Of a DNA stretch of 32,000 nucleotides, positions 17,465-29,831 are shown piece by piece (the first letter of the stretch is position 1; the number at the start of each line of letters is the position of its first letter). A program made the position numbers and the translations under genes. The DNA is from Xylanibacter ruminicola 23 (GTDB taxonomy: Bacteria; Bacteroidota; Bacteroidia; Bacteroidales; Bacteroidaceae). The stretch spans positions 2,310,001-2,342,000 of the forward strand of contig NC_014033.1 in NCBI RefSeq assembly GCF_000025925.1. Direction: 5' to 3'. The notes beneath the pieces are model-generated. The model worked only from the letters and a program-made list of their open reading frames with translations, made no database searches and had not been told where the DNA came from.

Positions 17465-17488
17465 AGTGTACCACTTTAATAGTACACT
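17465..17488. promoter_or_regulatory. Candidate GntR/YtrA operator: inverted repeat AGTGTAC-N10-GTACACT
   Basis: The 7-bp perfect arms are 17465-17471 and 17482-17488. The site lies immediately downstream of the minus-strand -7 box and 39 nt upstream of the ATG of the ABC operon that encodes the GntR regulator. The GT..AC half-sites fit the GntR family. Confidence 0.5.
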
Positions 17489-17489
17489 G

Positions 17490-17497
17490 CAAAAGTA
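17490..17497 (-). promoter_or_regulatory. -7 promoter box (TActTTTG) for the ABC/GntR operon
   Basis: The plus strand reads caaaagta, which is tacttttg on the minus strand, 64 nt upstream of ATG 17426. Confidence 0.5.
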
Positions 17498-17598
17498 GAA
17501 TAAAAACAAATACGCTCCAAGCTTTTATGCAAAAATCTGCAATCTATTAACACTATTTAGCACTTCAACCCTCACGCGTACATAACTAATAAACAGGG

Positions 17599-17661
17599 AG
17601 ATAGTACGGCACTATCTATGAGATACTCGTAACTTATCTGGTAGATATCCGGCACTTATCT
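17599..17661. repeat. Three tandem 19-bp palindromic sites AGATA-N9-TATCT at an exact 22-bp period
   Basis: The sites are 17599-17617, 17621-17639 and 17643-17661. All six half-sites are perfect and every spacer is exactly 9 nt. Confidence 0.9.
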
Positions 17662-17678
17662 GCCCACGAAGTTACGGT

Positions 17679-17737
17679 TACTATTAATGGTAGCGATTGC
17701 TACATTTAATGGTAGCAAAAATTCCCATTAATGGGAA
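17679..17737. repeat. Three ATTAAT-centred palindromic sites at an exact 22-bp period
   Basis: The sites are tactattaatggta (17679-17692), ctacatttaatggtag (17700-17715) and the perfect 16-bp palindrome ttcccattaatgggaa (17722-17737). Their centres are at 17685.5, 17707.5 and 17729.5. Confidence 0.85.
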
Positions 17738-17750
17738 CAATGGCAGCACA

Positions 17751-17936
17751 GTGTAACACTGTAACATACGACAGGAGAGAGAAAAAATATGGTCAAGATA
17801 GAACAAGTAATAGCTTATAAGATTATTTATATATTATAATATATAAATAATTAATATATAATATTATTATAATAATAGATATTATACAACCATGACCAAA
17901 CTTTTTTTCGTTCCTGTCGTAAAATTAACGTTACAC
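17751..17936. repeat. 186-bp imperfect inverted repeat enclosing an extremely AT-rich palindromic core
   Basis: Arm pairs are gtgtaac (17751-17757)/gttacac (17930-17936), a perfect 10-mer tacgacagga (17767-17776)/tcctgtcgta (17912-17921), and tggtca (17790-17795)/tgacca (17893-17898). The core 17815-17886 has 70 of 72 positions A/T, with a perfect 30-bp palindrome (17822-17851) and a 16-bp palindrome (17862-17877). Confidence 0.9.
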
Positions 17937-17961
17937 TCTTGGTAGATTGAAATATTTTTTG

Positions 17962-17969
17962 TACCTTTG
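17962..17969 (+). promoter_or_regulatory. -7 promoter box (TAccTTTG) for the 470-aa P-loop gene
   Basis: The context is ttgtacctttgcag, 26 nt upstream of ATG 17995. Confidence 0.6.
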
Positions 17970-17994
17970 CAGTGTAATCTTAAAAGACTGAATA

Positions 17995-19407
17995 ATGACA
18001 AAAGAGACTAACTTAAATGACCGTTCAATCATCGAACGACAGATGCTATTCGCAGGTAAAGAAATCGAGAAGCTGATGGATGTATATCCCTGCTTACGCG
18101 AGGTGTGCAAGGGCCTTAAAACCGAGGCCTACCCTGCTGCTATGTTTGCATCGTCGGCCTTCCTGGGTACGCTGATGACACGTTGTACCTATCGTTTTTA
18201 CCATCGCCCTCAGGAGTTGCGTCGCCTCAACTATAGCGTGTTCATCATTGGCGACCCTGGTTCAGGAAAATCGTTTGTAACCAATCTCTACGAACTTTTA
18301 GCCGGTCCTATCCGCAAAGTATCTAAGGAGGGGCAGAATGCCGAGAATCGCTATCGTCGCAAATACAAGGAGTGGCTGGACAACGGACAGAAAGGCGATG
18401 GCCCCAAGAAGCCCCAGGTAATTATCCGTACCCACCCTGCCCGTACATCCAACAAGGTGTTTATCGAAGACATGAAGCATGCCGTTGAGATGGTGGATGG
18501 CCAGGAGATGCACCTGCACATGCTCTCGTTCGACACAGAGCTCGACAATGCCATCAATCAGCAGGGCGAGGCATGGAGCAACAAGACCTATCTGGAATTG
18601 AAGGCTTTCCACAACGAGGAGGATGGACAGTTCTTCTCGAACTACGACTCAGAGCTTTGCGACTTCAATGTGTTTTGGAACTTTGTTTATACAGGCACAC
18701 CCCGCGCTCTGAAAAACAAGGTGAATGCCAACAACGTAGGCAATGGATTCTCAACCCGACTGGCAGCTATTCCCATGCCCTCAACCCACTTCGAGATGCT
18801 GAAACGTGAGGAGTTGGAAGATGCGAACGTAGAGCCTGAGGAGCACAAAACCCTGCGCATGTGGGCCGAGCGATTAGACTCTACCCATGGCGAACTGCCC
18901 ATTGGCAAACTGGTAGAAAGCACCTACGAATGGGCCAAGGAGCACATGGAAGAAGCCGAGGAGGACCAGTCGAAAACCGACGAACTGTTGCTTAAGCGTG
19001 TACCCTACTATGGCATCGCCGTAAGCGTACCTTTCATTATGATGCGCCATTGGGATGAGTGGCAGCAGCACCACACCCTCACTCTCGACGACACCGACCT
19101 GTACTTGTGCCGTTTGGCCATGAACATCCAGTTCGCATGCCAGCGCCATTTCTTTGGCAAATACTGGGATTACTACTTTATGCAGCAGGCTAACTGCATT
19201 AGCTATCCCACCCGCAAGCGCCACACCAAACTGATGCGTTCGCGTTACAGTGTTCTACCTGATGAATTCAGCGTGCCTTCCATGCAGATATTCCTAGGCG
19301 TGTCCCAGCGTACCGCCGAAAAGATGATAGAGCGCTGGCTCAACGATGGCTACATCAAGCGCATAGAACCCGGCAGGTACCAGAAATTATATCTCGAGCT
19401 AACATAA
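17995..19407 (+). CDS. Orphan P-loop NTPase with a C-terminal winged-helix-like domain (family uncertain; possibly DUF3987/SF3-helicase-like)
   Basis: This 470-aa ORF has its own promoter. It has Walker A GDPGSGKS (aa 86-93), a candidate Walker B LHMLSFDTE (aa 174-182), and a C-terminal HTH-like segment FLGVSQRTAEKMIERWLNDGYIKRIEPGRYQK. The ORF call is solid; the functional assignment is tentative. Confidence 0.75.
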   Translation: MTKETNLNDRSIIERQMLFAGKEIEKLMDVYPCLREVCKGLKTEAYPAAMFASSAFLGTLMTRCTYRFYHRPQELRRLNYSVFIIGDPGSGKSFVTNLYELLAGPIRKVSKEGQNAENRYRRKYKEWLDNGQKGDGPKKPQVIIRTHPARTSNKVFIEDMKHAVEMVDGQEMHLHMLSFDTELDNAINQQGEAWSNKTYLELKAFHNEEDGQFFSNYDSELCDFNVFWNFVYTGTPRALKNKVNANNVGNGFSTRLAAIPMPSTHFEMLKREELEDANVEPEEHKTLRMWAERLDSTHGELPIGKLVESTYEWAKEHMEEAEEDQSKTDELLLKRVPYYGIAVSVPFIMMRHWDEWQQHHTLTLDDTDLYLCRLAMNIQFACQRHFFGKYWDYYFMQQANCISYPTRKRHTKLMRSRYSVLPDEFSVPSMQIFLGVSQRTAEKMIERWLNDGYIKRIEPGRYQKLYLELT

Positions 19408-19498
19408 TTGCTTATTGCAATTAAACTTTCTACCACTTACAACATCTAAGATTTACAGCATTATCTAACAATTACAACTATATCAAACAAACAGTGAA

Positions 19499-22108
19499 AT
19501 GAAAAGGCTTTTAACTTTAACCATCGCGGCGATGATGGGGGCAAGTGTGTTTGCCCAGGTTAAGTATCCGTATCTGGATACAAAGTTATCAAACAAAGAG
19601 CGCGTTGAGAACTTGCTGAGTCTGCTCACACCCGAGGAGAAGGTGGGACTGATGATGAACAAGTCGATCTCGATCGACCGTCTGGGCATCCCTAGCTACA
19701 ACTGGTGGAGCGAGGCTTGTCATGGTGTGCGTCAGGATGGCTATACGGTTTATCCACAACCCATCGGCATGGCAGCAGCCTTTAATGCACAGCTGTTCTA
19801 CGATGTATTCTCGCAGGTGTCCGACGAAGCCCGTGCCAACTGGAACCGTACCGACCACAACGATCCTAAGCTGTTTAACGTGCCCATGGGCGTTACCTAT
19901 TATCCTGGCAACCCTGAGCTTACGTTCTGGTGTCCGAATGTAAATATCTTCCGTGACCCTCGCTGGGGACGCGGACAGGAAACCTGCGGCGAGGACCCTT
20001 ATCTGAATGCCGTATTAGGCGTACAGACCGTATTGGGTATGCAGGGTAACAACGACAAATACTTTAAAACCCACGCCTGCGCCAAGCACTATGCCGTGCA
20101 TAGCGGTCCAGAGCCCTTGCGCCACTCTATGAACGTAGAGCCAACCAACCGCGACCTGTGGGAAACTTACCTGCCAGCCTTTAAGGCACTGGTAAAGAAA
20201 GGTAACGTGCGCGAGGTGATGTGCGCCTACCAGCGTTTCGAGGGTAAGCCCTGCTGCACCAGCGACCGTTTGTTGATTGATATCCTGCGTAACAAGTGGG
20301 GCTACGACGCCATCGTACTGACCGACTGCGACGCTATCAACAACTTCTTTAATCGTGGACAGCACGAAACCCATAAGGATGGCTTGTCGGCCTCGGTTGA
20401 TGCTGTGTTGAACGGTACCGACCTGGAGTGCGGTAAGGTATTCATGTCGCTGGTTGAGGGACTGAAGAAAGGCCTCATCAAGGAGAGCGACCTTGACAAT
20501 CATCTGCGTAAGACCCTGATGGGCCGCTTTGAGTTGGGTATGTTCGATCCTGCCGATATGCTACCTTGGGCCAAACTGGGTGCCGATGTGATTAGTAGCG
20601 AGAAGAACGATGCGATGGCTGTTCAGGCTGCACGCGAGAGTATGGTACTGCTGGAGAACAAGGCTGGTATCCTGCCACTCTCAAAGAGCATCAAAACACT
20701 GGCAGTGCTTGGTCCTAATGCCGACGATGTGAACATGCTGAATGGTAACTATGGTGGCACACCTACTGCCGCCCACCAGCACTCACTGCTCTCAGGTATC
20801 AAGGCTGCAGTACCTGGTGCCAAAATCATCTATAACAAAGCTTGCGAACTGAACGACGAATATACCACCATCCACCATCTGCAGGACTTTAACGATGGCA
20901 AGGGTGTGAAGGCAGAGTTTTATAATAATAAGGAATTAGCAGGCGAACCTGCCAAGACTGATTACTACAACGAGTTGAACTTCTCGACCTTTGGTGCCTG
21001 GGGATTTGCTCAGGGCGTGAATCGCGATACCCTCAGTGTTCGCATCAGCGGTAAGTACACCTCAACTTTTACTGGCGAAATGAAGTACACCCTGACTACT
21101 GACAACGGCTACGTGCTGAAGGTAAATGGCGAGGTAGTAGAAGAGGCTCAGGCAGGTGGCCGTCGTGGTTTCTTCGGATTTGGTCGCAAGCCCCAGTACA
21201 AGTCGTTCCCTGTTGAGGCAGGTAAGACCTACGACGTAGTCATCGAGTACAAGCATGGTAACGGACAGTTTGCTATGCTGCGTGGCGATATCTGCGAGCG
21301 CAACCTGGTTGACTTTACCGACCTGGCCAACCAGGTGAAGGAGGCCGATGCTATCGTGATCATCGGTGGCATCTCAGCCCAGATGGAAGGCGAAGGTGGC
21401 GACAAACAGGACATTGAGCTGCCAAAAGTTCAGCAGATGTTGGTAAAAGCTATGCACAAGACTGGCAAGCCTGTTATCTTTGTAAACTGCTCAGGTTCGG
21501 CCATTGCCTTTGGTAGTGTCGAGGGCGAGTACGATGCTCTGTTGCAGGCCTGGTATGCTGGTCAGGGTGGTGCTAAGGCTTTGGCCGAGGTGCTGTTTGG
21601 CGATTACAACCCTGGTGGAAAACTGCCCGTAACCTTCTATCGCTCTAACAACGACCTGCCCGATTTCCTCGACTACTCGATGAAGAACCGCACCTATCGT
21701 TACTTTACAGGTGTGCCTCAGTATGCATTCGGCTATGGTTTGAGCTACACCACCTTTGCGCTCGGCGATGCCAAGATTTCAGCCAAACAGATGAAAAAGA
21801 ATGGTAAGGTAACCCTGACCGTACCTGTAACCAACACTGGCAAGCGCGAGGGAACCGAGACCGTTCAGGTATATGTAAAGCGTCTCGATGATGCAGGCGC
21901 ACCTATCAAGGCCCTGAAGGGTTTCCAGAAGCTGAATCTGAAAGCAGGTGAGACACAGAAGGCCACCATAACACTGGATGGCGAGGCATTCGAGTATTAC
22001 GATGAGATGATCGACGAACTGGCCACAAAGGCAGGTCGCTATCAGATTCTTTACGGTACCTCATCAATGGATAAGGACCTGAAAACCATCGATTTTGTTG
22101 TTAAGTAA
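19499..22108 (+). CDS. Glycoside hydrolase family 3 beta-glucosidase/beta-xylosidase with an inserted PA14 domain
   Basis: The 869-aa ORF has a signal peptide and GH3 motifs (NIFRDPRWGRGQETCGEDP, KHYAVHSG, VLTDCDAI). A PA14-like segment (GVKAEFYNN...GKTYDVVIEYKH) and a C-terminal Fn3-like domain are also present. Confidence 0.9.
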   Translation: MKRLLTLTIAAMMGASVFAQVKYPYLDTKLSNKERVENLLSLLTPEEKVGLMMNKSISIDRLGIPSYNWWSEACHGVRQDGYTVYPQPIGMAAAFNAQLFYDVFSQVSDEARANWNRTDHNDPKLFNVPMGVTYYPGNPELTFWCPNVNIFRDPRWGRGQETCGEDPYLNAVLGVQTVLGMQGNNDKYFKTHACAKHYAVHSGPEPLRHSMNVEPTNRDLWETYLPAFKALVKKGNVREVMCAYQRFEGKPCCTSDRLLIDILRNKWGYDAIVLTDCDAINNFFNRGQHETHKDGLSASVDAVLNGTDLECGKVFMSLVEGLKKGLIKESDLDNHLRKTLMGRFELGMFDPADMLPWAKLGADVISSEKNDAMAVQAARESMVLLENKAGILPLSKSIKTLAVLGPNADDVNMLNGNYGGTPTAAHQHSLLSGIKAAVPGAKIIYNKACELNDEYTTIHHLQDFNDGKGVKAEFYNNKELAGEPAKTDYYNELNFSTFGAWGFAQGVNRDTLSVRISGKYTSTFTGEMKYTLTTDNGYVLKVNGEVVEEAQAGGRRGFFGFGRKPQYKSFPVEAGKTYDVVIEYKHGNGQFAMLRGDICERNLVDFTDLANQVKEADAIVIIGGISAQMEGEGGDKQDIELPKVQQMLVKAMHKTGKPVIFVNCSGSAIAFGSVEGEYDALLQAWYAGQGGAKALAEVLFGDYNPGGKLPVTFYRSNNDLPDFLDYSMKNRTYRYFTGVPQYAFGYGLSYTTFALGDAKISAKQMKKNGKVTLTVPVTNTGKREGTETVQVYVKRLDDAGAPIKALKGFQKLNLKAGETQKATITLDGEAFEYYDEMIDELATKAGRYQILYGTSSMDKDLKTIDFVVK

Positions 22109-26485: not shown

Positions 26486-26516
26486 CAGCAGAAATCTTTT
26501 TCTATTGCAAACCATT

Positions 26517-27065
26517 ATGAAGAAATTGTTTATATTTGCCCTGATGTTGATGCTTTCTATGAGCGACCTCGCTCTTGGAAAGGTTAACCCTGACCAGGCT
26601 CCAGACGAGGAGGAGATTGGCAACTTCGACTTCATTTATGGAACACAAGACGATTTGAACGAGGCATTCGAGAAGACCGAGATGATTATGAGCGAGGCTT
26701 TCTCACACATGGGTGCCCGCTACCGCTCAGGTGGTAAAGGTCCAAGCGCTTTCGACTGCTCTGGCTTTACCAGCTATGTTTACAAGCAGCAAACCGATTT
26801 GTTTATCGGTGCTTCATCAAGAGATCAGTATGCACGCAATATCCCCATCACCCGCGATGAGTTGCAGAGTGGCGACCTGGTATTCTTTACCAGTCCACGT
26901 TCTGGTCGAGGTGTTGGCCATGTAGGTATCGTGGTTGATGTAGATCCCATCAACAATACATTTACCTTCATTCACGCCAGTACCAATAACGGTATTACTA
27001 TCAACAGTTCTACCGACTCGGGTTACGCCCGTCGTTACATCGGTGCACGTAGAGTGCAGCAGTAA
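26517..27065 (+). CDS. NlpC/P60 (C40) family cell-wall peptidase
   Basis: It has a signal peptide from ATG 26517 (MKKLFIFALMLMLSMS). The catalytic Cys motif FDCSGFTSYVY, the His motif GHVGIVV and FIHAS are present. Confidence 0.85.
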   Translation: MKKLFIFALMLMLSMSDLALGKVNPDQAPDEEEIGNFDFIYGTQDDLNEAFEKTEMIMSEAFSHMGARYRSGGKGPSAFDCSGFTSYVYKQQTDLFIGASSRDQYARNIPITRDELQSGDLVFFTSPRSGRGVGHVGIVVDVDPINNTFTFIHASTNNGITINSSTDSGYARRYIGARRVQQ

Positions 27066-27178
27066 ACGGAAATCGACACATTTAGCCATATTAACCTGAA
27101 AAAACAACAAAATATCGGCGAAAGTGTTAAAAGTGAACAAAAAACACCAATATATTTCCGTTTTTCATGCAATATTAG

Positions 27179-27186
27179 TACCTTTG
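27179..27186 (+). promoter_or_regulatory. -7 promoter box (TAccTTTG) for the M23 peptidase gene
   Basis: The context is agtacctttgcacc, 40 nt upstream of ATG 27226. Confidence 0.55.
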
Positions 27187-27225
27187 CACCGGATTTTTTA
27201 ATTTGATATTAACTCAACTAAGTAT

Positions 27226-28161
27226 ATGAACATTAAAAGCTTTAAGAAAATAGCTGTTTTGGCATTCTCAGTTTTTGTTGCAGCCCCCGCGTCTGCACAG
27301 GATCTGTTGGCTAAGCAGGCACCAGTCGATCGCAAGATGAAGGCAGTCGACTCGATGGTTCTCAAGCGAATCATTGAGCAGGAGGAGAAGTACAACCCCT
27401 CAGCCGACCTCTACGAAGACTGGAATAATGTATATGCCCACCGCGAAACAGTACTCCCCGACTCATTCCGTATCGACCTGAGAGGTTTCCACATGCCTAC
27501 CGATAGCCGTGTGCTCACCTCAAACTTCGGCGCACGTTGGGGACGTCAGCACAAGGGCCTCGACATCAAAGTATATATTGGTGATACCATCCGCGCCGCC
27601 TTCAGCGGTAAGATCCGTATCGTAAAATATGAGCCTAAGGGTTATGGTAAGTACGTAGTTATCCGCCACCACAATGGTCTGGAGACTATCTATGGTCACA
27701 TGTCAAAGCACCTGGTAGTTGAGAATCAGGAGGTTAAGGCTGGTGATCCTATCGGATTGGGTGGTAACACTGGTCGTAGTACTGGTTCACACCTGCACTT
27801 CGAGACACGTCTTTGCGGTGTAGCCCTGAACCCAGCTCTGCTGTTCGACTTCCGCAATCAGGATGTTGTAGGCGATTTCTACATGTTCCGTCGCAGCAAG
27901 TACGCTGCTGAGTCGGCTATGGCCACTCGTCTGCGTGGTGTTGGTGGTGTAACCGCTGGCGATAACGATCAGGACGACGAGCTCGAGATTGCAACAGCCC
28001 CACGTACATCATCTAATGTACACTTCCACAAGGTTAAGAAGGGCGATACCCTGCAGGCCATTGCCCGCAAGCATCACACCACGATTGCTAAGCTCTGCGA
28101 GCTGAACCACATCGGCAAGAACATACGCTTGCGCCCAGGACAAATTTTGAAATACAACTAA
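27226..28161 (+). CDS. M23 family metallopeptidase with a C-terminal LysM domain
   Basis: It has a signal peptide and the M23 motifs HKGLDI and [14 protein letters not shown]. The LysM segment is [29 protein letters not shown]. Confidence 0.85.
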
Positions 28162-28173
28162 AAAAATATCAGG

Positions 28174-28202
28174 AATCCCGTCAAGTTGACGGGATTTTTT
28201 TT
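28174..28202 (+). terminator. Rho-independent terminator of the M23 gene
   Basis: A perfect 9-bp GC-rich stem pairs aatcccgtc (28174-28182) with gacgggatt (28188-28196) around a 5-nt loop, followed by a T8 run. Confidence 0.8.
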
Positions 28203-28223
28203 GGTATATTGCTCACTTATTTG

Positions 28224-28231
28224 TATATTTG
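28224..28231 (+). promoter_or_regulatory. -7 promoter box (TAtaTTTG) for the DUF853 gene
   Basis: The context is ttgtatatttgcg, 26 nt upstream of ATG 28257. It lies inside the N-terminal extension of the track ORF, which argues for the 28257 start. Confidence 0.55.
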
Positions 28232-28256
28232 CGCCATAAACTTAAAACAAAAGCGT

Positions 28257-29831
28257 ATGTACGACAAGGAAAGAGGGCTTTACATAGCCCACTGCTCTAA
28301 CGGAGCACTGAGTATTACAGGTAAGATGGCCAACCGTCATGGTTTGATTGCTGGTGCCACAGGTACAGGTAAAACCGTTACCCTGCAGGTGATGGCCGAG
28401 ACCTTCTGCCAGGCAGGTGTACCCTGCTTCATGGCCGATATGAAGGGCGACCTCTCGGGTATCTCGCAGACTGGTAAGCTGAGCGGCTTTATCGAGAAGC
28501 GCATGCCCGAATTTGGCATCGAGAATCCTGAGTTCCAGAGTTGTCCTGTACGCTTCTTCGATGTATTTGGCGAACAAGGACATCCCATGCGTGCCACCAT
28601 CTCACAGATGGGTCCACAGTTGCTCAGTCGTCTGCTCGACCTGAACGAGACACAGGATGGCGTACTGAACATCGTGTTCCGCATTGCCGACGAGCGCGGA
28701 CTGCTGATTCTCGACCTGAAAGACCTGCGCGCCATGCTCGACTATGTATCGCAGCATGCCAAGGAGTACACCACTAAATATGGTAATATCTCAACTGCTT
28801 CGGTAGGCGCCATCCAGCGCGCCCTGTTGCAGTTGGAGAACCAAGGCGCCAACCAGTTCTTTGGCGAGCCCTCGTTCGACATCTTCGACCTGATGCAGAC
28901 CGAAGGTGGCAAGGGTATCATGAATGTGCTGGCTGCCGATAAGTTGATGATGCAGCCCAAGTTGTACTCTACATTCCTGTTGTGGCTTTTGAGCGAGCTC
29001 TACTCTACCCTCCCCGAGGTAGGCGACATGCCGCTGCCTAAGTTGGTATTCTTCTTCGACGAGGCACACATGCTGTTCGACGGCACATCAAAGGCATTGC
29101 TCGATAAGATTGAGCAGGTTATCCGTTTGATTCGTTCAAAGGGCGTGGGTATCTACTTTATTACCCAGAGTCCTACCGATATCCCCGAAAACATCCTCGG
29201 ACAGTTAGGCAACCGTGTGCAGCATGCCCTGCGTGCTTACACACCAAAGGATCAGAAGGCTGTTAAGACCGCTGCCGACACGTTCCGTCCTAACCCAGCA
29301 TTTAAAACCGACGAGGCCATCATGAACCTGGAGACAGGCGAGGCGCTTGTTAGTTTCCTCGACGAGAAGGGTGCACCCACCATTGTTGAGCGCGCCAAGA
29401 TTCTGTTCCCGCTCTCGCAGATTGGTGCCATCACCGAGGGGCAGCGTCTCGATATCATCAAGCAGAGTCGCATCTATGGTAAGTACGACACACCAGTGGA
29501 TCGCGAGAGTGCCTTCGAGGTACTGATGGCCGAAGCCGATCGCGCCCTGCAGGAACAGGAGCAGACCGAAGTTGAGGTTCCACAGCCTGAAGCTAAGGCC
29601 GAGAAAAAGAAGTCGGGTATACTGGCAAAGGTAGGAAAGGCCATTCTGACTGCCATCACCTCTACCCTGGCAGCTATGTTAGGCACCTACGTAAGCGATA
29701 AGGTAACGGGTAAGAAAACCAAGAGTCGCACCTCGGCAAAAGGTCGCGTAGTGAAAAACGCCACCAGTGCCGCTACCCGAACCATTACCAAGGAACTTAC
29801 AAGAGACATCCTTGGTAACCTGATTAAGTAA
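28257..29831 (+). CDS. DUF853/YjgR-like HerA-FtsK-type P-loop ATPase
   Basis: It has Walker A GATGTGKT near the N-terminus, Walker [13 protein letters not shown] and [28 protein letters not shown]-terminal basic/hydrophobic tail follows. Confidence 0.8.

Follow-up and report, generated by a model that had tools for sequence, protein, structure and literature searches.

The DNA analysed here is a 32,000-nucleotide (nt) stretch of Xylanibacter ruminicola 23 (assembly GCF_000025925.1, contig NC_014033.1, positions 2,310,001 to 2,342,000 of the forward strand), which is called the window below. The gene under study, at positions 17995-19407 of the window, encodes a predicted stand-alone AAA+ ATPase of the DUF3987 type, and directly upstream of it lies a module consisting of phased repeat arrays and an inverted repeat around an A+T-rich core. 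The features of this locus are as follows.

17599..17677, no strand assigned: distal array 1, three ~22-bp AGATA-N9/10-TATCT units (17599-17617, 17620-17639 and 17642-17661), then CCACGAAGTTACGG
17678..17744, no strand assigned: distal array 2, three 22-bp units with the palindromic core ATTAATGG, starting at 17678, 17700 and 17722
17767..17795, plus strand: left arm of the inverted repeat, with the outer box TACGACA (17767-17773) and the inner box GGTCA (17791-17795), 22 bp apart
17796..17892, no strand assigned: A+T core, 97 nt, 89% A+T, rich in short palindromes
17893..17921, minus strand: right arm of the inverted repeat, with the inner box TGACC (17893-17897) and the outer box TGTCGTA (17915-17921)
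17937..17969, plus strand: promoter, with the -7 box TACCTTTG at 17962-17969 preceded by a T-run and a TTG-containing -33-like region
17995..19407, plus strand: gene for the predicted stand-alone DUF3987/superfamily 6-type AAA+ ATPase with a C-terminal winged helix, 470 amino acids (aa), ATG start
18250..18273, plus strand: Walker A motif GDPGSGKS (aa 86-93), in which G86, P88, G91, K92 and S93 are invariant
18514..18540, plus strand: Walker B-like segment LHMLSFDTE (aa 174-182), with a strand at 176-180 in the model
19228..19386, plus strand: winged-helix domain (aa 412-464), with helices at 412-420, 427-434 and 438-450 and a hairpin at 454-464

The open reading frame (ORF) was present exactly as the original prediction, made from the sequence alone, had described it. 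It is not a chance ORF, since a large-database search returned 4369 homologs and the ratio of non-synonymous to synonymous substitution rates (dN/dS) of the short-form gene, to which the ORF belongs (see below), was 0.065-0.08 in unsaturated comparisons among close relatives. The Walker A motif was confirmed, its key residues being invariant in 30 orthologs. In the same orthologs, L174, H175, L177, S178, F179, D180 and E182 of the candidate Walker B segment were invariant, and so were the YTGT motif (232-235), T254-R255 and, in the third helix of the winged-helix domain, A441, K443, R447 and W448. A full-length AlphaFold2 model built from 67 sequences had a mean predicted local distance difference test score (pLDDT) of 88.4 and a predicted template modelling score (pTM) of 0.86. 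In this model, HMLSF forms a beta-strand (176-180) and is then followed by D180, the arrangement expected of a Walker B motif. The ATPase core follows just ca. 60 helical residues, the long acidic/helical middle region of the original prediction corresponds to helices at 282-398, and residues 412-464 fold into three helices and a beta-hairpin, i.e. the winged helix that had been suspected at the C-terminus. When the C-terminal domain was modelled alone (pLDDT 88.2), its best matches were the winged helices of MarR, RovA/SlyA, CRP/FNR, IclR and ArsR (template modelling score (TM) 0.55-0.69), and profile searches with this end gave weak matches to AbiEi, MntR and DIP2311_C. Judged from its substitution pattern, the short-form gene is under strong purifying selection and thus appears to be functional; a decaying pseudogene was ruled out by the dN/dS of ca. 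0.07, the invariant motifs and the constant length.

The protein had been likened to DUF3987-type helicases and, alternatively, to superfamily 3 (SF3) helicases of the P4-alpha or D5-like kind. In a Pfam scan, DUF3987 (PF13148) matched aa 65-293 on model positions 20-264 of 364 with 21.1 bits (E 2e-4), which is under the gathering threshold of 27 bits, and the protein is a remote relative of this family, not a member by Pfam's cutoff. Sub-threshold DUF3987 matches were also obtained with 18 of the 30 orthologs (best 1e-5), and distant members of the same family scored higher, P0193 with 26.9 bits and P0260 with 34.8 bits, the latter above the threshold. The top predicted viral structures in BFVD were DUF3987 proteins and primase-helicase fusions (E 4.8e-14 to 1e-9; TM up to 0.57 for the query and 0.66 for the target). 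The DUF3987-type identity was thus upheld by the ortholog matches, P0260 and the viral folds, although the score of the protein itself is sub-threshold. The nearest solved structures found with Foldseek were MCM2-7, archaeal MCM, ComM and ORC (E 8.5e-6 to 1e-3, probability 1.0; TM for the query 0.33-0.39, identity 8-12%). No SF3 helicase was found among the top 50 PDB fold matches, and the Pfam scan of the protein gave neither a D5_N, Pox_D5 or DUF5906-type domain at E <= 1 nor an MCM match; the SF3, P4-alpha or D5 alternative was therefore not borne out. Searches against PDB chain sequences, with the single sequence or a family profile, gave no match below E = 1, the presence in that set of chains of SaPI Rep, an initiator discussed below, being unconfirmed. 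NCBIfam, PHROGs and PADLOC gave weak matches to the helix-turn-helix end alone, and no defence model matched the ATPase part.

From these results, the protein is a remote DUF3987 member, i.e. a predicted MCM-like AAA+ ATPase of superfamily 6 and of the replicative-helicase type. Placement of DUF3987 in superfamily 6 has been reported (PMC11724360). Kazlauskas et al. predicted DUF3987 to be a helicase that is attached to archaeo-eukaryotic-type primases of mobile elements, and winged-helix domains beside it were proposed as possible origin readers (PMC5862659). The protein resembles MCM in its AAA+ core, helical lid and C-terminal winged helix as well as in its best solved-structure matches, whereas the low TM values and identities and the lack of an N-terminal OB-fold/zinc domain and of a Pfam MCM match set it apart.

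The 4369 homologs fell into two length classes. Proteins of ca. 470 aa (short forms) were 54-98% identical to the window protein and had no Pfam domain, while proteins of ca. 800 aa, and up to ca. 900 aa (long forms), carried an N-terminal BT4734-like primase domain (PF08800) and were 49-54% identical over 94-99% of the query. An exhaustive profile search of 1.84 billion proteins yielded just 735 clusters at 50% identity, most of them long-form with the shared module at the C-terminus, the short form making up essentially one cluster. The split was equally clean in species-representative genomes, in which 21 short-form loci stood at 55-99% identity and the long forms at 52% or less; the short form of X. 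ruminicola strain D31d was 99% identical to the window protein. In the multi-locus genomes of the survey, one short copy was accompanied by one or more long-form paralogs, as in Ga6B6 (L020 short; L076 and L092 long) and D31d (L022 short; L082 long). The long forms share with the window protein the ATPase motifs and the C-terminal helix-turn-helix-like end, and PF08800 was missing from the window protein and from all orthologs of ca. 470 aa. The 568-nt region upstream of the gene held the repeat module alone, without an ORF remnant. As the family is mostly long-form, the short form makes up essentially one cluster and the lengths split so cleanly, the simplest reading is that the primase domain was lost in one lineage, so that the short form would derive from a BT4734-like primase-helicase fusion. 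The ancestry among replication proteins of the mobile-element type that had been suggested for the gene agrees with its ca. 50%-identity relatives being BT4734-like primase fusions of ca. 800 aa. We are highly confident that the protein assignment and this domain-loss history are both right.

Two exceptional sequences were encountered in this comparison. P0056 (813 aa, on a single 3.4-kb metagenome contig) is long-form-like in its N-terminal ca. 560 aa and nearly identical to the short-form P0029 in its last ca. 250 aa; it is either a recombinant of both forms or an assembly chimera. In the metagenome-assembled genome (MAG) RUG765 (L039, 4131-5363), the short-form ORF is just 410 aa long from the first in-frame ATG and has an inverted repeat ca. 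207 nt upstream, which may reflect an N-terminal frameshift or a sequencing error in the MAG.

As single-stranded DNA, positions 17740-17930 of the module in the window gave a folding energy of -29 kcal/mol (z = -7.0). The same architecture precedes nearly every short-form gene, with arm and array sequences that are specific to the lineage. In nearly all short-form loci, each arm has two ACG(A/T)CA boxes 22 bp apart, the arms stand in opposite orientation around a core of 60-166 nt with 79-92% A+T, and the distance from the element to the ATG is nearly constant (61-87 nt). The arm consensus over 18 loci was gtaaCtTacGACAaaAAg..gAAAaaa.tacGTCA. Units of the array-1 type (CGTAACYTATCT) recurred with strict 22-bp spacing at L006, L031 and L033 and at the gene-less L118, L125 and L126, and units of the array-2 type at L006, L026, L027 and L028. 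A strict arm motif (TACGACASGAAG) was restricted to close relatives; it was the generic search for an inverted repeat with an A+T core that showed the element to be general.

The association of this module with the short form was also evident in counts. When 747 kb of fetched DNA was searched for A+T cores (at least 50 nt, at least 90% A+T), 24 of the 37 cores lay 73-174 nt upstream of a short-form ATG and a 25th (L039) lay at 242 nt, while long forms almost never had such a core nearby. The top periodicity was 21-23 bp in 11 of 17 short-form upstream regions as compared to 3 of 43 long-form regions (Fisher p = 9e-6). The two arms of one locus were 73% identical as against 58-59% between loci, a value reached in 0 of 5000 permutations. 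Since the arms within a locus are alike beyond chance, palindromic symmetry is kept while the sequence drifts. No arm boxes were found near same-genome long-form paralogs in the fetched flanks of ±4 kb. In a metagenome palindrome scan, the gene followed the palindrome at nine loci, at the usual distance of 74-75 nt except for one at 109 nt, and some chance matches were also obtained. The upstream repeat arrays and A+T-rich region with which the original prediction had expected homologs to be associated are thus almost always present at short forms.

The module also behaves as an entity separable from the gene. At L038 (3068-3862, minus strand), at the ABC-transporter site, the module and the helicase gene are separated by an inserted RhuM-family gene, and yet near-perfect 32-nt arms, the A+T core and three 22-bp iterons are intact ca. 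950 bp from the promoter; such a module is hard to square with a purely promoter-proximal operator. Besides, copies of the arrays and palindrome that lack the gene were found in rumen metagenome contigs at the following positions.

L121, 2310-2720: gene-less module copy
L118, 3803-4060: gene-less module copy
L125, 1400-1651: gene-less module copy
L126, 1040-1281: gene-less module copy
L107, 2350-2700: gene-less module copy (the same as L117)

L125 and L126 share their left flank and the element (90% identity), and their sequences separate precisely at the outer right-arm end, while L118 shares the ca. 430-bp module alone. By this pattern, the module is a discrete unit whose arm end is a rearrangement breakpoint.

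Elements of partly similar appearance were seen at some other loci. At the long-form locus L014 (8221-12352), an A+T core is located ca. 1.7 kb upstream, before the small ORF and the HIRAN-domain gene that precede the primase-helicase gene, and L042 and L067 have an A+T core at a similar distance; the arrangement at L014 may be a variant layout of a similar cis-element. L112 (1359-4268, minus strand), a non-rumen metagenome contig, encodes a 969-aa D5_N/DUF5906 protein, a true SF3 primase-helicase that is unrelated in sequence to the window protein. The 3' coding region of this gene (boxes at 1709-2295) contains 11 copies of TACGACAGG as against 0.43 expected, five on one strand and then six on the other, which amounts to an inverted iteron field inside the gene; the contig surfaced because the scan pattern required a TACGACAGG box.

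A sigma-70 promoter/terminator scan is uninformative for Bacteroidota, and a search for the Bacteroidota -7 box TAnnTTTG was used instead. The box of the gene (TACCTTTG) lies 26 nt before the ATG and is kept in independent loci, and the sequence TTTTTTGTAyCTTTGCA is conserved in all aligned short-form loci. These observations are in line with the consensus promoter that had been ascribed to the gene. A further TAnnTTTG box (TACTTTTG, 17490-17497, minus strand; region 17475-17504) belongs to the divergently oriented ABC-transporter operon, so that the repeat module sits between two divergent promoters. Downstream, a GH3 gene begins 91 nt past the stop codon of the helicase gene, and the spacer contains neither a TAnnTTTG box nor a terminator-like hairpin; both the spacing and the lack of a recognisable GH3 promoter had been predicted correctly. 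An operon with GH3 as a conserved feature was rejected, because the downstream neighbour differs or is convergent in other genomes. Even within the X. ruminicola complex, the DNA that follows the helicase gene (19408-22108 in the window) is variable: in strain KHT3 (L023, 5393-8435), ca. 3 kb is inserted before GH3, and RUG765 (L039) is devoid of GH3. L023 and L030 have a second A+T core 73-91 nt past the stop codon.

Neighbouring genes were surveyed for ORFs of at least 150 aa by a Pfam scan or by the annotation of the near-identical contig L001. The neighbours in the window are ordinary (ABC/MacB transporters, GH3, GH53, NAD kinase, DJ-1, IspD, RecG, HerA-like, RmuC), and no integrase, primase, phage or conjugation gene was found among the surveyed ORFs of the 32 kb. 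Rfam and tRNA scans of the window were empty; the upstream element is thus no known RNA, and the window holds no tRNA integration site. Across 19 independent short-form loci, no neighbour family recurred in more than three, with HigB/HTH and HepT/MNT at L006, Pif1 and radical SAM at L009 and HAD and EamA at L010. The description of the gene as an orphan without partner genes therefore holds. In the X. ruminicola complex, the gene stays beside the ABC transporter with flanks of 77-94% identity, and L038, whose protein is 56% identical, adjoins the same ABC genes as in the window. The ABC-transporter site carries proteins of 99%, 81% and 56% identity, while an 84%-identical protein (L006) is encoded elsewhere, at an unrelated site, where DNA homology spans the upstream element and ends exactly at the stop codon. 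Since the site is stable in the complex and the L006 ortholog lies elsewhere, inheritance seems to be mostly vertical with occasional relocation of a discrete unit of ca. 1.8 kb. No recombinase or target duplication was observed. Long-form genes repeatedly precede a Peptidase_M15_3 gene (L017, 11210-11644; L100, 4272-4733) and have small hypothetical ORFs upstream, and defence-type genes occur near them (Fic/RhuM, SIR2 with ADP-ribosylglycohydrolase, and type I restriction-modification). In IMG/VR, just two long-form loci were found; their surroundings, with SIR2/ADP-ribosylglycohydrolase or type I restriction genes, resemble islands and are not clearly viral.

Based on the protein family and the conserved module, it was hypothesised that the gene together with the preceding ca. 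400 bp (roughly 17599-19407) makes up a single replication-initiator cassette that has become fixed in the chromosome, and in which the module would be an origin-like loading site. We give this hypothesis about an even chance of being right. Winged helices of the protein would bind the repeated boxes, and oligomers, probably two opposed hexamers, would form at both edges of the A+T core, which they would melt in order to be loaded there as helicase without a separate loader. For priming, the unit would have to rely on the host primase or on that of a long-form paralog. Since the right arm ends ca. 40 bp upstream of the -7 box, it is probable that such binding controls the promoter of the gene as well. 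The host might gain by over-replicating a local region, by restarting replication or by interfering with incoming elements whose initiators are related. A similar layout is known from iteron plasmids and captured archaeal origins, in which phased repeats of ca. 22 bp, an AT-rich unwinding region and inverted repeats occur near the initiator promoter and the initiator gene adjoins the origin. The Rep proteins of plasmids consist of tandem winged helices and have no helicase, whereas here the initiator itself would be the helicase and the unit resides in a bacterial chromosome.

Among characterised systems, a matching layout is that of the SaPI Rep origins of Staphylococcus aureus. SaPI Rep, an AAA+ helicase and initiator that loads itself and has a winged helix at its C-terminus, binds iterons flanking an AT-rich region in opposite orientation right beside rep, and it exists in primase-fused (PriRep5) and stand-alone (Rep1) versions (PMC9371898). 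The window protein likewise combines, in the model, a helicase-type AAA+ ATPase with a C-terminal winged helix, its family occurs in primase-fused and stand-alone forms, and its gene lies next to an A+T core with two boxes per side in opposite orientation. However, there is no detectable sequence homology between the two proteins. The SaPI iterons are of 5-6 bp and lie downstream of rep, whereas the boxes here lie upstream, in long arms and with 22-bp phasing, and the SaPI islands can be induced and encode an integrase, a primase and packaging functions, whereas the unit in the window is solitary and appears to be vertically inherited. AgaPH of Seonamhaeicola, a stand-alone PriCT-DUF3987 protein with a small C-terminal domain, was shown to form oligomers, to act as a 5'-3' helicase by means of its Walker A and B motifs and to bind the BT4734-like primase-polymerase AgaPP (PMC11724360). 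It resembles the window protein in being a stand-alone DUF3987-type ATPase of Bacteroidota with Walker A and B motifs, a small C-terminal domain and a tie to BT4734-like primases. Unlike the window gene, the AgaPH gene adjoins that of its primase on an integrase-bearing element with a prokaryotic Argonaute (pAgo) gene; the window protein is under the Pfam DUF3987 threshold, and the origin-like upstream module of its gene has no counterpart described for AgaPH in PMC11724360. Helicase activity has been demonstrated for AgaPH alone; the window protein, whose motifs are present and invariant among orthologs, is a predicted helicase. The long-form fusions of Prevotellaceae/Bacteroidales, ca. 50% identical over 95% of the window protein and encoded by paralogs in the same genomes, differ from it in their length of ca. 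800-900 aa with the N-terminal primase domain, in being preceded by no A+T core, inverted repeat or 22-bp arrays, and in their typical surroundings of small upstream ORFs and a downstream Peptidase_M15_3 gene.

Several results weigh against the initiator-cassette hypothesis. DNA binding by the protein and origin firing by the module are steps that we infer by analogy, no primase is encoded in cis in the surveyed window, and a right arm that lies so close before the promoter would suit an operator equally well. GC skew of the window does not invert at the element, which speaks against a major origin in constitutive use and shows that the element is not one. In the winged helix, the third helix hardly varies although the distal arrays differ by lineage, and the identity of the C-terminal domain did not follow the type of distal iteron (0.37-0.40 for the same type, 0.38-0.41 for different types, in a comparison of low power). 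The existence of gene-less copies makes it less likely that the element serves as the gene's own site alone, and the module may have a separate function or outlive the gene. At L002 (1300-1540), on a low-coverage metagenome contig, an identical 470-aa protein and promoter are combined with a different A+T-core palindrome (arms TTTGCAAACTTGAC and GTCAAGTTTGCAAA) without 22-bp arrays and next to an SBF-like transporter; it is a genuine recombinant or else a chimera of the assembly. Finally, because tblastn against 50,697 phage and 72,556 plasmid records gave no relative, it is the protein family alone that points to a mobile-element ancestry. A far-reaching version of the hypothesis, in which the unit would be a second chromosomal origin with an MCM-like self-loading initiator, captured from a primase-helicase element, stripped of its primase, kept under purifying selection in rumen Prevotella and used conditionally to over-replicate a local region or to restart replication, seems distinctly improbable to us. 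An array of DnaA boxes or oriC was considered separately and rejected, as the units vary between lineages and are unlike the DnaA-box consensus, and as there is no inversion of the window's GC skew at the element.

The arrays and the palindrome may instead be operators, for the protein itself or for a host regulator, of an autoregulated ATPase that acts in defence, repair or remodelling and not in replication. We regard this as the main rival explanation, though a rather unlikely one. The right-arm position and the very constant spacing between element and ATG are what an operator would show, the winged helix resembles those of the repressor types MarR, IclR and ArsR and has weak AbiEi matches, and neighbours of the toxin-antitoxin or defence type are common (HigB/HTH with HepT/MNT at L006; SIR2 and type I restriction-modification near long forms). 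BT4734-like proteins have been reported alongside defence systems (PMC11724360), and both a cis-encoded primase and a GC-skew signature are lacking. On the other hand, an operator rarely needs ca. 330 bp with a pure A+T core of ca. 100 bp, co-varying arms of 30-40 nt and arrays phased at 22 bp. Nor does it readily account for the element at L038, intact behind an inserted gene, or for the persistence of copies without a gene, and no PADLOC defence model fits the ATPase part.

Mobility offers another explanation for the discreteness of the unit, which would then be a minimal mobile or satellite-like replicon of ca. 1.8 kb that relocates between sites, perhaps by in-situ replication and recombination or with the help of long-form elements. 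Orthologs of 84% identity at unrelated sites with homology that stops exactly at the unit borders, 19 loci without a conserved neighbour, an occupied site that does not track protein similarity and a recurrent breakpoint at the outer end of the right arm would all fit such a replicon. We nevertheless consider it improbable: no recombinase, terminal repeats at the unit ends or target-site duplication were seen, each multi-locus genome surveyed has a single short copy, the site is stable across the X. ruminicola complex, and phage, plasmid and nearly all viral-contig collections lack the gene. Moreover, gene order in Prevotella is fluid in general, and different neighbours are therefore no proof of mobility. 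Least probable of all is a non-functional SF3 helicase of the P4-alpha or D5-like kind left by a decayed satellite or prophage, to which we give hardly any credence. The protein resembles such helicases broadly in length and layout, and a genuine D5_N/DUF5906 primase-helicase with an inverted iteron field does exist in L112, but the window protein is dissimilar to that protein and no other mobile-element remnant was found among the surveyed ORFs of the 32 kb; its constant length likewise speaks against decay. With no SF3 domain match, MCM, ComM and ORC as fold neighbours in place of SF3 helicases, and a dN/dS of ca. 0.07 with invariant motifs, this explanation is effectively refuted.

No earlier description of the short-form family or of its upstream element was found in the literature searched. 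Mobile elements are known to use DUF3987-type helicases and BT4734-like primases as modules for their replication, and both have lately also been noted beside defence systems; in the present, abundant group of rumen bacteria, the helicase half is found by itself as a conserved chromosomal gene with an origin-like site. If the initiator and its site are active as a pair, this would be a rare bacterial chromosome that retains an extra, non-DnaA initiator/origin pair, and the unit of ca. 1.8 kb would be a compact candidate replicon for Prevotella genetics, where tools are scarce. The second-origin version, if true, would be the bacterial counterpart of the origin capture behind the multi-origin chromosomes of archaea. 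If the protein is a regulator or defence component instead, a replication initiator and its binding sites would have been put to new use. On either reading, the cis-module provides a concrete DNA target for an otherwise unannotated protein family.

Elsewhere in the window, genes for an NlpC/P60 protein, an M23/LysM peptidase and a HerA-like ATPase (HerA_C, 707 bits) lie in a row at 26505-29831 downstream of recG and are unrelated to the unit described here.

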